Assembly: GCA_041640635.1 (NCBI GenBank)
Contig: JBEPZX010000001.1
Coordinates: forward strand, 96,001 to 160,000
Length of the DNA stretch: 64,000 nucleotides
Source of the DNA: Aquificaceae bacterium
Lineage (GTDB): Bacteria; Aquificota; Aquificia; Aquificales; Aquificaceae
Direction of reading: 5' to 3'
Below, piece after piece: positions 50,496-54,216 of the stretch. The notes beneath the pieces are model-generated. The model was not told where the DNA came from, made no database searches, and saw only the letters and a program-made list of their open reading frames with translations. The position numbers were made by a program, and so were the translations under genes. How positions within the stretch are numbered: position 1 is the first letter of the stretch; each line of letters begins with the position of its first letter.

Positions 50496-51905
50496 CTAAA
50501 TGTCAAAGTAGAGTTCAAATTCTCTTGGATGAGGAATGAATCTTAATGCATCTACTTCCTTTTTCTTTGATGATATCCATGAGTGTATTATGTCTTCTGT
50601 AAATACACCGCCCTTTAGTAAGAATTCGTAGTCATTTTCCAATGCCTTTAAAGATTCTTCTAAGGAACCTGGTAATTGTGGTATATCCTTTAATTCCTCT
50701 GGTGGCAGAGAGTATATATCCTTGTCAAAAGGTTCTCCTGGGTGAATTCTGTTTTCTATGCCATCAATAGCTGCCATAAGTATGGCTGAAAATGCCAAAT
50801 ATGGATTACATGTAGGGTCTGGAAATCTTATTTCTATTCTCTTTGCTTTTTTGGATTGAGAGTACATAGGTATTCTAATTGCTGCTGATCTATTTCTTGC
50901 AGAATACGCAAGTCTTACAGGTGCTTCAAACCCTGGAACCAGCCTATGGTAAGAGTTTATTGTTGGGTTTGTGAAAGCTGTTAGAGCAGGTCCGTGCTTC
51001 AATATACCACCTATAGCATAAAGGGCTAATTCCGATAGTCCTGCGTATTCAGAGCCTGCAAAAAGGTTTTCTCCGTTTTTCCATATAGAAAAGTGAGTAT
51101 GCATACCGGATCCGTTGTCATCTGGGAGCACTTTTGGCATAAAGGTTGCATACTTTCCATACCTTGCTGCAACGTTTCTTACTACGTATTTGTACAAAAA
51201 CATATTGTCTGCCTGCTTTAGCAAAGAGTCGTATCTAATATCTATTTCTCCTTGACCAGCTGTTGCAACTTCGTGGTGATGAAGCTCAACTATAATTCCA
51301 AGCTCCGACATTATCGAGACCATTTCATTTCTGAGATGGTGAGTTTTGTCGAGAGGAGGTGCTGGGAAGTACCCTCTTTTGTTTGGAATTTTGTAACCAG
51401 AGGAAGTAATTTCTCTATTCCACCATCCTTCTTCCGAGTCTATCTTCCAAAAAGCATAGTTGGATGCTGTTCCAAATTCCACAGAATCAAAGATGAAAAA
51501 CTCTGCTTCTGGTCCATAGTAAGCCACATCACCTATGCCAGTTTGCTTTAAGTATTGCTCAGCTTTTTGAGCTACGTATCTGGTATCTCTTTCGTATCTT
51601 TCACGTGTTATAGGATCATATACATCACAGATGATAGCCAAGGTCTTTGGTTCTAAAAAAGTGTCAACAAATGCTGTTGATGGGTCAGGTATCAGTATCA
51701 TATCTGACTCGTTTATGGATTGCCAGCCTCTTATAGAAGAACCATCGAATCCTCTTCCACTTTCGAAAGTGTCCATAGAAAACTCGTAAGCAGGCACGGT
51801 CAGATGCTGCCACTGACCAAAGAGGTCAGAAAACCTGAGGTCTACATATTGCACATCTTCCTTTTCGATAATGCTTAGTATTTCCTCAGCTGTGTACTTA
51901 GGCAT
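50496..51905 (-). CDS. glnA: Glutamine synthetase type I (beta-like)
   Basis: FDGSSI, HHHEVA, NGSGMH, RLVPGFEAP, RNRSA, DKDIY.LPPEE. Confidence 0.97.
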   Translation of the reverse strand: MPKYTAEEILSIIEKEDVQYVDLRFSDLFGQWQHLTVPAYEFSMDTFESGRGFDGSSIRGWQSINESDMILIPDPSTAFVDTFLEPKTLAIICDVYDPITRERYERDTRYVAQKAEQYLKQTGIGDVAYYGPEAEFFIFDSVEFGTASNYAFWKIDSEEGWWNREITSSGYKIPNKRGYFPAPPLDKTHHLRNEMVSIMSELGIIVELHHHEVATAGQGEIDIRYDSLLKQADNMFLYKYVVRNVAARYGKYATFMPKVLPDDNGSGMHTHFSIWKNGENLFAGSEYAGLSELALYAIGGILKHGPALTAFTNPTINSYHRLVPGFEAPVRLAYSARNRSAAIRIPMYSQSKKAKRIEIRFPDPTCNPYLAFSAILMAAIDGIENRIHPGEPFDKDIYSLPPEELKDIPQLPGSLEESLKALENDYEFLLKGGVFTEDIIHSWISSKKKEVDALRFIPHPREFELYFDI

Positions 51906-51922
51906 TTTTTACTCCTCCTAAT

Positions 51923-52010
51923 TCTAGATACCTAGATCTAGATTGGGGTATTTTTATCCCGCCTTTGTAATAAGCTGTTCTTTCCCCAACAGGCGGTTTT
52001 AGAACAGCTT
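51923..52010 (-). promoter_or_regulatory. Structured element in the glnA 5' leader (candidate cis-regulatory RNA)
   Basis: Perfect 10-bp stem AAGCTGTTCT/AGAACAGCTT, loop complementary to downstream segments, second hairpin next to the SD. Confidence 0.55.
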
Positions 52011-52128
52011 TAAGATAGTGAAAACTTGGTTTATTTAGGGATTTTAAGAGCTTTTTAACATGGATAACATAAATTTTTAGAAACGGCTCACTTTCACCAG
52101 CTAACATCTTTAACAGTAAACAGGTTAT

Positions 52129-52157
52129 ATTATAGTACCTTTATTAATTTATGTCAA
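52129..52157 (-). promoter_or_regulatory. Consensus sigma70 promoter of glnA
   Basis: TTGACA (52157-52152), 17 nt, TATAAT (52134-52129). Confidence 0.8.
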
Positions 52158-52224
52158 CTATTTATCTTTACCTAAGATAGGTAATTTTGTACTAGATGAC
52201 AAAAAGCTTAAATTTAAAAATAGT

Positions 52225-54216
52225 ATGATAAAGGAGAAAACCTTTGAGTTGGTAACTTCGCTTAAACCATCAGGTGATCAACCAAAAGCTATAGAAAGTA
52301 TTTTACAGAATTTGGAAAAGGGTACAAAAGTTCAAGTTCTCTTAGGTGCTACAGGAACAGGTAAAACTTTTACTTTAGCAAATGTTATAGCAAAACACAA
52401 TAAACCCACCTTAGTTTTGGCACATAACAAAATATTGGCTGCACAGCTTTATCGAGAATTTAAGGAGCTTTTTCCTAATAACGCTGTAGAGTATTTCATA
52501 TCTTATTATGATTATTACCAACCGGAAGCTTACATACCTGAGAAAGATTTATACATAGAAAAAGATGCATCAATAAACGAAATACTCGAAAGATATAGAC
52601 ACTCGGCCACGGTCTCTGTACTGGAAAGAAGAGATGTTATAGTAGTTGCTTCTGTGTCTTGCATTTATGGACTTGGTTCACCAGATCACTATTGGAATTT
52701 GAGAATTCCTGTGAGTATAGGTGACAGAATCAGCATTAGCAAACTTGTTAGGAAGCTTGTAGAGATAGGATATTCCAACAACAATTATGCTTACAAGCGC
52801 GCAACCTTTTCCATAAAAGGCAATGCTTTAGAAGTAGTCCCGTCTGATTTGGAAGATCAGATTGTAAGGTTGGAATTTTGGGATGACGAAGTAGAGAGTA
52901 TAACTCTTATGGATGAGTTAAACAGACATATTATAAAAGAACTAAACAAAATTACCTTCTTTCCTGCCTCTCACTACATAGCGCCAAGAGAAATAATAGA
53001 ACAAGCAATAGAGCAAATAGAAAGAGACTTAGAAGAAAGAGTTAATTACTTTAAGAACGAAGGAAAGCTTGTAGAAGCCCAAAGGTTATATCAAAGGACT
53101 ATGCACGATATAGAGATGATAAGAGAGCTGGGACATTGCAAAGGTATAGAAAATTATTCACGCTACTTTGATGGTAGAAAACCAGGAGAACCTCCTTTTA
53201 CGTTGCTTGATTACTTTCCAGATGACTTTTTACTTATAGTTGATGAGTCTCACGTAACTATACCACAAGTTAGAGCCATGTATAACGGAGACAGATCCAG
53301 AAAAGAAAAGCTTGTAGAGTACGGTTGGAGATTACCTTCTGCCCTGGATAACAGACCATTAAAGTTCGAAGAGTTTCTAGAAAGATTAAATCAAGTTATT
53401 TTGGTGTCTGCTACACCTTCCCAATGGGATTTGGATTTTTCACAGAATGTGGTTGTAGAACAGATAGTCAGACCTACAGGTCTTTTGGACCCAATAGTAG
53501 AAGTTAGGCCTACCAAAGGACAACTGGAAAACTTAGTATGGGAAATCCAGAAGGTAAAAGAGAGAAAAGAGAAAGCCATAGTGTTAACAACAACCAAGAG
53601 ACTTGCTGAAGATGTAGCAGAGTACTTCAACGAAAGGCAGATAAAAGCGAAGTATATGCATTCAGAACTAGATGCTATAGAGAGAGCCAAAATAGTCAAG
53701 GAGTTGAGAGAAGGATTCATAGATGTTATTGTGGGTGTTAACTTGCTAAGAGAGGGTTTGGATCTACCAGAGGTCTCATTGGTTGCTATCTTGGAAGCTG
53801 ACAAGGAAGGATTTTTGAGAAGTACCACATCCCTGATACAAATAATAGGTAGATGTGCAAGAAATGTTAATGGAAAGGCTATTTTGTATGCAGATAATAT
53901 AACCCAATCTATGAAAAAGGCTATTGAAGAAACAAATAGGAGGAGAAAATTGCAAGAAAAGTACAATAGGGAACATAATATAACACCAAAAAGTGTGGTA
54001 AAACCTGTAAAGGACTTACTAGCCATAGAGGAGTTGGATTATGTAAAACTTCCCACTAAATTACCAAAAGGTGTAAAAAGTGAAGGAGATATAATAGAAC
54101 GTATAAATAAGTTAGAAAGGGAGATGTGGGATTTGGCAAAGAGGTGGGAGTTTGAAAAAGCTGCAAAAATAAGAGATGAAATTAAAAAATTGAGGGATCT
54201 TTTGAACTTAGTATAG
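52225..54216 (+). CDS. uvrB: Excinuclease ABC subunit B
   Basis: [31 protein letters not shown]-terminal UVR domain. Confidence 0.97.

Follow-up and report, generated by a model that had tools for sequence, protein, structure and literature searches.

A solitary double-pseudoknot module, probably derived from an IS607-type TnpB guide-RNA scaffold, in the glnA leader of an Aquificaceae bacterium

The 5' leader of glnA, the gene for type I glutamine synthetase, in an Aquificaceae bacterium (assembly GCA_041640635.1, contig JBEPZX010000001.1) contains a compact, doubly pseudoknotted RNA that runs into the Shine-Dalgarno (SD) sequence of the gene. The gene lies in a window of 64,000 nucleotides, positions 96,001 to 160,000 of the contig; coordinates are given as window positions, and the leader is read on the minus strand. 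The segment 52010-51914 (-) is probably the solo, guide-proximal module of the right-end element RNA (reRNA, or omegaRNA) of an IS607-type TnpB transposon, retained by selection and acting as a constitutive leader that presents the ribosome-binding site (RBS) and stabilizes the mRNA, rather than as a nitrogen sensor. Set against what is known, it would be an uncatalogued kind of mRNA leader: a solo piece of an IS607-type guide-RNA scaffold that selection has kept. An earlier note, made from the letters of the window, had described a structured, pseudoknotted RNA at this site; that description is confirmed, and the RNA is conserved in related copies.

The module is about 88 nt long and consists of a stem (P1), two pseudoknot helices (PKa and PKb), an A-rich linker and a hairpin (P2). 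Its parts, from 5' to 3' in the transcript, are as follows.

51972..52010 (-): stem P1 (52010-52001 paired with 51981-51972) with a 19-nt loop that bears the 5' strands of both pseudoknots
51992..51996 (-): 5' strand of PKa, CCGCC, in the P1 loop; pairs with 51963-51959
51984..51989 (-): 5' strand of PKb, UUGGGG, in the P1 loop; pairs with 51948-51943
51959..51963 (-): 3' strand of PKa, GGCGG; pairs with 51996-51992, with covariation
51949..51958 (-): A-rich linker, GAUAAAAAUA; near-invariant across copies except at one free position
51943..51948 (-): 3' strand of PKb, CCCCAA; pairs with 51989-51984, with covariation
51923..51942 (-): hairpin P2, seven base pairs and a 6-nt loop (51942-51936 paired with 51929-51923)
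51914..51922 (-): AUUAGGAGG, aligned by eye to the transposon terminus (A)ACCAGG; makes up the glnA SD

Each helix that the earlier note had drawn is present. P1 comprises 10 perfect pairs; CCGCCU of its loop (51996-51991) faces AGGCGG (51964-51959), UUGGGG (51989-51984) faces CCCCAA (51948-51943), and the hairpin at 51942-51923 precedes the SD sequence AGGAGG (51919-51914). Both loop helices and P2 covary in related copies. The A-rich linker may take part in tertiary contacts. The structured part, 92 nt, folds with z = -3.66, and none of 200 shuffled sequences folds as well; the whole 223-nt leader is not outstanding in this respect (z = -0.07).

Support for the fold comes from an alignment of related copies. 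The covariance model R1, built from nine copies with only P1 and P2 as structure, gives the window copy 98 bits (E = 4e-21). Among 39 distinct copies, 92.2% of cells pair, compared with 69.7% in shuffles, a level that 0 of 500 shuffles reach, and the covariation score is 0.519 as against 0.129. Because the copies are related to one another, these shuffle figures are inflated and overstate the case. Kinship does not affect two other observations: pairing falls to 47-50% when the partners are slid by one column, and pairs have changed on both sides. All eight modelled pairs of P1 have done so across the copies, and its outermost pair has changed from A-U to G-C between the genome of the window (G000) and that of a sister species (G001). 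P2 covaries at six of six pairs in one count and at five of six in another. The sequences of both stems vary freely while pairing is kept; in six genomes of one genus, for example, the leaders of htpX have P1 arms that differ and still pair (two of the six open reading frames, ORFs, were assigned by size).

The structure of R1 does not include the pseudoknot helices, which therefore could not shape the alignment, yet both covary. For one pair of PKa, 29 of the 39 copies have C-G, the other 10 have G-C, and none is unpaired. In PKb one pair occurs as U-A (17 copies), C-G (16) or G-C (3), and a second one as G-C (20) or U-G (10). In another count, the first PKb pair is C-G in 28 copies and U-A in three, namely the window copy, its G001 orthologue and a second G000 copy in the leader of rplY. 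The earlier note had taken the two loop pairings as alternatives, in the manner of a switch. The pairings themselves are real, but the data fit simultaneous formation instead: both helices are conserved and both covary, which fits a double pseudoknot better than a switch.

The solo copy at glnA is kept under purifying selection. The module is identical to that of G001 at 85 of 90 positions (94%), compared with 75.4% (n = 179) and 76.3% (n = 131) at the four-fold degenerate sites of glnA and uvrB (P = 2e-6); the uvrB side of the spacer between these genes is 76.5% identical. The five differences are a compensatory change of one P1 pair and single bases in the loop, the linker and the P2 loop, and all 15 bases of the SD stretch (51920-51906) are the same. 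At the second locus, the rplY leader, 81 of 88 positions (92%) are identical to G001, as against 72% of four-fold sites. These figures bear on the view that the module is an inert transposon scar, persisting without function. Derivation from a mobile element would favor that view, as would the wide variation in copy number among close relatives (29 in genome G010; none in G019, G096, G097 and G101). A scar is nonetheless unlikely, since both loci are far more conserved than the 72-76% of four-fold sites, the changes fall only at unpaired or compensated positions, and the htpX leaders have kept different yet pairing P1 arms.

When the spacer is compared by BLAST with 148 genomes of the order, only leader positions 215-281, corresponding to P1 and the tail, recur, and they do so many times per genome. 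R1 finds matches at E ≤ 0.01 in 111 of the 148. G000 has two strong copies (the glnA leader and, at 72 bits, the rplY/ctc leader on contig C4), and copies number 29 in the complete genome G010, 20 in G143 and 10 in G140. Within one genus, G010 has 24-29 copies, and no match at E ≤ 0.01 occurs in G019, G096, G097 and G101, among others. In a sample of the phylum, 99 of 151 genomes have a match at E ≤ 0.001, including four from other families of the class, and four thermophilic Firmicutes carry 7-19 copies each.

A scan with a degenerate pattern, limited to one genome per species, found at least 123 stretches, of which 80 were listed and classed by title. Among the matches listed, 40 are from Aquificota, 29 from thermophilic Firmicutes (Thermovorax, Caldanaerobacter, Thermoanaerobacter, Fervidicola, Carboxydothermus, Caldicoprobacter and others), five from Thermodesulfobacteriota or 'Delta' metagenome-assembled genomes (MAGs), one from Thermodesulfovibrio and five from other organisms, at least one of the last looking like chance. 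The recognised hosts among these listed matches are, we take it, all thermophiles. Two Thermovorax loci, L249 and L253, hold solo short-form copies with P1 and P2 sequences of their own and promoter-like boxes, so that retention of the solo module is not limited to Aquificota.

Copies of the module stand before genes of many kinds. In 70 of 71 matches (32 of 32 and 38 of 39), a candidate start codon that opens a frame of 50 aa or more is found no further than about 33 nt past the modelled end; five of these start codons fall 2-8 nt inside it. Downstream genes include those for stress and protein quality control (Hsp20, HtpX, HPF, FtsH, thioredoxin and its reductase), for RNA metabolism and translation (Hfq, L25, S13, S14, S18, S20, S21, L32, IF3, RpoA, Rho) and for metabolism (MetE, GlyA, IMPDH, Adk, Ndk, pyrophosphatase, IlvC, PFOR subunits, ATP-citrate lyase and others). 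A Pfam scan covered 58 of the 71 downstream ORFs, and no nitrogen-metabolism family was found among them. Among the copies examined, the module precedes glnA in two of 72 aligned ones, those of G000 and G001, and at locus L175, in an Aquificaceae MAG. A stress or heat-shock regulon, suggested by the first 32 copies, was dropped when the copies of G010 and G140 showed a far broader gene set. A recent mobile repeat such as a miniature inverted-repeat transposable element (MITE) was rejected for most Aquificota copies, in which P1 and P2 differ from copy to copy and covary; some copies of G010 are near-identical, and MITE-like spread may explain those.

The earlier note had gone on to suggest a nitrogen- or glutamine-responsive element tied to glnA. 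This part of its reading is unsupported, because the same module occurs before dozens of unrelated genes and its intact copies are right-end guide-RNA scaffolds of IS607-type TnpB transposons. The glutamine riboswitches, known as the glnA RNA motif and the Downstream-peptide motif, are likewise pseudoknotted RNAs upstream of a nitrogen gene; unlike them, the module has a gene association that is not nitrogen-specific, and no meaningful Rfam match was obtained at E ≤ 10. The note had itself failed to recognise the glutamine-I/II consensus and had proposed an Infernal search of Rfam, which agrees with it on this point: Rfam 15 does not contain the module. At the gathering score the whole window yields only two tRNAs, and cmscan of 51700-52400 at E ≤ 10 returns three chance-level matches to unrelated families.

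A riboswitch or sensor of some global signal, such as temperature, Mg2+, polyamines or an alarmone, with the double pseudoknot as aptamer or sensor and the CCCCA strand pairing by turns with the loop UGGGG and with the G-rich SD, is very unlikely. The roughly 40 near-invariant nucleotides found across phyla, set among freely varying stems, do recall riboswitch aptamers; the genes are rich in translation, nucleotide and stress functions, and the hosts recognised among the matches listed are presumably all thermophilic. The invariant core, however, is explained equally well by origin as a protein-bound guide-RNA scaffold, and the gene set, which lacks metabolic coherence, tracks the insertion-site choice of a transposon. 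Moreover, the SD lies outside the conserved pairings, and no Rfam riboswitch matches. RNA thermometers of the ROSE and fourU types sequester the SD in a weak, heat-labile helix, whereas the predicted fold of the module leaves the glnA SD unpaired, 3-10 nt beyond P2, and the conserved helices are G+C-rich. It is also quite unlikely that the solo knots form a phylum-wide post-transcriptional regulon in hyperthermophiles, as an exapted sensor or docking module answering one global signal or RNA-binding protein. Were this the case, the translation of ribosomal proteins, chaperones, hibernation factors and central metabolism would be co-ordinated, with glnA among the targets in this genus.

The transposon origin of the module is seen in its longer copies. 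Many copies are preceded by at least 150 nt of further conserved, helix-rich sequence and end downstream in (A)ACCAGG, past which they diverge from one another; long-form copies in one genome are identical through the module to ACCAGG. R1 matches solo and long-form copies alike. At four of eight loci with long flanks (L247, L248, L250, L252), the module lies directly 3' of an ORF of 406-515 aa on the same strand, which matches TIGR01765 and TIGR01766 (TnpB-related) and, in part, NF040570 (guided_TnpB), and for which Pfam gives only a weak Cas12f1-like TNB match. The tnpB of L248 is preceded by a 197-aa ORF (956-1546) with a MerR helix-turn-helix (HTH) and a Resolvase domain, and G175, the genome of that locus, has several resolvase matches 1.5-1.9 kb upstream of motif matches on the same strand. 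This arrangement is the IS607 layout. The copies of G140 and G143 have tnpB only, no resolvase having been found there. In intact copies the module is situated downstream of the tnpB stop codon and upstream of the transposon end, and the counterpart of P2 is the hairpin adjoining that end.

The boundaries of the element can be read in G140, where five copies (L255-L259) hardly differ over the stretch that begins shortly before the tnpB ATG and runs to ...ACCAGGT, and differ beyond; their left flanks, where the boundary is clear, tentatively read AGGAGG or AAGAGG (five copies), both of them SD-like. A start codon followed by an open frame occurs 0-15 nt past ACCRGG at 26 of 29 long-form loci. 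The transposon family thus sits between the RBS of the host and the start codon, and offers its own AGG-ending terminus. One transposon copy in G140 lies within the ribosomal spc/alpha operon region, before adk.

Insertion at the RBS would follow from the target preferences of these elements. Passages of PMC10711439 state that IS607 elements recombine at GG dinucleotides, and passages of PMC11061315 give AGGAG as the transposon-associated motif (TAM) of IS607 TnpB in 18 of 22 strains and GAGGG in 4 of 22. The latter also describe a 187-nt reRNA scaffold with two pseudoknots and the RAGATH-18 motif at -51 to -122. By these accounts the reRNAs of ISFba1/RAGATH-18 (PMC11061315) and ISXfa1 (PMC10711439) resemble the intact copies in several ways. 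The module lies downstream of tnpA (MerR-HTH with serine recombinase) and tnpB, the copies are pseudoknotted and run to a GG-ending terminus with an AGGAG-like left flank like the published TAM, and the distance from the guide is about that of RAGATH-18 (-51 to -122). They differ in that Rfam models, including RAGATH-18, do not match the module, that the long-form TnpB is of 406-515 rather than about 390 aa and carries the TIGR01765 N-terminal domain, and that the window copy lacks both tnpB and the upstream scaffold. RAGATH-18 gave no match in 51700-52400 at E ≤ 10, and Rfam, RAGATH-18 included, gave none in ten long-form loci at E ≤ 0.1, with 150 nt upstream of the core taken in.

The omegaRNA of ISDra2, a member of IS200/IS605, is similar in general plan: passages of PMC10097598 describe several stems, a guide-adjacent pseudoknot, a triple-helix element and a guide-adjacent hairpin. 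ISDra2 inserts after TTGAT, not at GG or AGGAG, and those passages do not describe two loop-to-tail helices. By term search of the available text, 'Shine', 'ribosome' and 'start codon' are absent from PMC11061315, and 'Ribosome binding' and 'start codon' from PMC10711439. In a limited library, literature on TnpB remnants and exaptation contained no solo reRNA modules as selected leaders, nothing relevant turned up on RNA thermometers in Aquifex, and the passages of PMC4227106 that were consulted do not describe the module.

The window copy lies between the divergent genes uvrB and glnA, with no tnpB alongside. It begins at P1, and after P2 it reads AUUAGG where intact ends have ACCAGG, leading directly into the glnA SD. 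An nhmmer profile of the upstream scaffold finds nothing in the leader of G000 or G001 (control 7e-35). A homologue of the cognate TnpB was not found in G000, which is 98% complete in 52 contigs, so that repeats may be missing; G010, with 29 copies, has no full-length homologue, and TIGR01766 matches nothing in G016 (15 copies) or G002 (3 copies). G000 encodes one canonical RNA-guided TnpB at C8:25871-26926 (-) (NF040570, 320 bits, 391-aa frame), which is unrelated to the long-form TnpB. In many solo copies, for example L085-L113 of G010, a TATAAT-like box identified by eye ends 5-9 nt before P1, so that in these the transcript would start with the module. The remaining ones in G010 include copies that begin, again by eye, directly after the stop codon of the upstream gene.

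It is conceivable that the leader is a docking site for a trans-encoded TnpB-like protein, or for a nuclease-dead protein derived from TnpB, so that it would serve as a guide-bearing RNA or its translation would be repressed by the bound protein. The module does belong to the guide-RNA scaffold of a TnpB, G000 encodes the canonical TnpB just mentioned, and TnpB-derived RNA-guided repressors are described in the abstracts of PMC10705468 and PMC13622181. This proposal nevertheless has little likelihood. In intact scaffolds the loop of an upstream stem-loop pairs with nucleotides next to the guide, forming a pseudoknot that is required according to passages of PMC10711439 and PMC10097598, and this stem-loop is missing from the solo copy. 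The CC of ACCAGG has decayed to UU in the window copy, TIGR01766 has no match in G016 or G002, and a cognate TnpB was not found in G000.

On the explanation that we favor, that of a selected solo scaffold module, an ancestor of the genus would have acquired an IS607-type element at the glnA RBS. The body of the transposon would then have been lost, and the compact knot with the terminal AGG would have remained in the leader. The knot could act as a self-contained fold of the upstream leader, leaving the SD free of upstream pairing, and it may protect the transcript. Such a role is what a transposon end would need in order to be tolerated before essential genes. Stem-loops that stabilize 5' ends are known in the leaders of ompA and aprE, and leader elements derived from transposons or MITEs are exemplified by the Correia elements of Neisseria, in which mobile-element remnants likewise join 5' untranslated regions and alter expression or stability. 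The glnA module differs from Correia-type elements in being a specific module of a guide-RNA scaffold whose double pseudoknot is conserved; selection has kept it, and the target choice of the transposon itself would have put it at the RBS.

Several observations weigh against this explanation. The role in RBS presentation and stability is suggested by position and conservation, which do not tell it apart from the binding of a ligand or a protein, and the estimate of selection comes from one species pair at two loci. Since the RAGATH-18 model does not match, homology to the characterised IS607 reRNAs is positional and not by sequence. The shared 5' boundary of the solo copies at P1 is odd for random deletions, and the near-identical copies in G010 hint that the short unit may spread alone. 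The glnA transcript and its start site are predictions from the sequence; the promoter lies about 118 nt upstream of P1, so the window copy does not stand at the 5' end of the mRNA as a simple 5'-end stabilizer would, and the approximately 110 nt in between are conserved (87%) as well.

In place of a supposed glutamine riboswitch, the evidence points to IS607-type TnpB transposons of thermophiles that land at ribosome-binding sites and whose double-pseudoknot remnant is selected before core genes. Should the solo modules indeed promote expression, guide-RNA scaffolds would have been exapted as mRNA leaders, and the module would be a natural, heat-stable "RBS insulator". It is absent from Rfam despite hundreds of copies in Aquificota alone, and copies are for that reason liable to be misread as riboswitches specific to one gene.

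The module is set in a divergent spacer of 319 nt (51906-52224) that is common to glnA and uvrB, the latter at 52225-54216 (+) (TIGR00631). The remaining features of the locus are as follows.

50496..51905 (-): glnA, type I glutamine synthetase, 469 aa (TIGR00653, 687 bits); ATG at 51905-51903
52129..52157 (-): sigma-70-type promoter, TTGACA, 17-nt spacer, TATAAT; 12 of 12 consensus matches
52011..52121 (-): upstream part of the leader, no assigned function; conservation relative to G001
51898..52107 (-): 69-aa ORF spanning the leader, from a mechanical ORF list; unsupported as a gene

The perfect promoter reported earlier is indeed there, one base from the positions then implied, with the -35 hexamer at 52157-52152 and the -10 hexamer at 52134-52129. 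Transcription is predicted to start near 52121, which would give a leader of about 215 nt. In G001, the sole other species of the genus that was compared, the hexamers are retained (TTGACT and TATAAT) and the spacer has diverged, the whole segment being 72% identical. This pattern fits a working promoter and a leader of that length, and hence expression of glnA from the predicted sigma-70-type promoter through a structured leader. Upstream of the module, 52128-52011 is 87.3% identical to G001 (103 of 118), compared with about 75% at four-fold sites (P = 0.001). Descent of this part from a decayed guide-RNA scaffold was rejected, since nhmmer detects no similarity between 52121-52011 and the upstream scaffold of intact transposon copies (control 7e-35).

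The 69-aa ORF raises the question of whether the leader encodes a protein whose translation is coupled to that of glnA. Both G000 and G001 have this frame open, with an overlap of 8 nt at the start of glnA. It has no NCBIfam match, its differences from G001 fall 8/4/4 by codon position and show no excess at third positions, and its changed codons include 10 non-synonymous and three synonymous; its 3' half is the RNA module, where conservation tracks base pairing. A coding function is extremely improbable on these grounds.

In 22 of 22 relatives from other genera (L003-L024), the PII gene glnB lies 13-36 nt upstream of glnA (one was confirmed by PF00543). An 18-member subset of these has a motif upstream of glnB that resembles the -24/-12 consensus of sigma-54 promoters, and none is present in G000 or G001. 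The spacer in the window is not a decayed glnB: six-frame reading gives no PII-like frame, and the PII genes of G000 lie elsewhere (C5:86699-87016 and C10:30287-30562). The genus has lost the glnB-glnA operon with its sigma-54-like promoter, and has a predicted sigma-70-type promoter and the leader instead.

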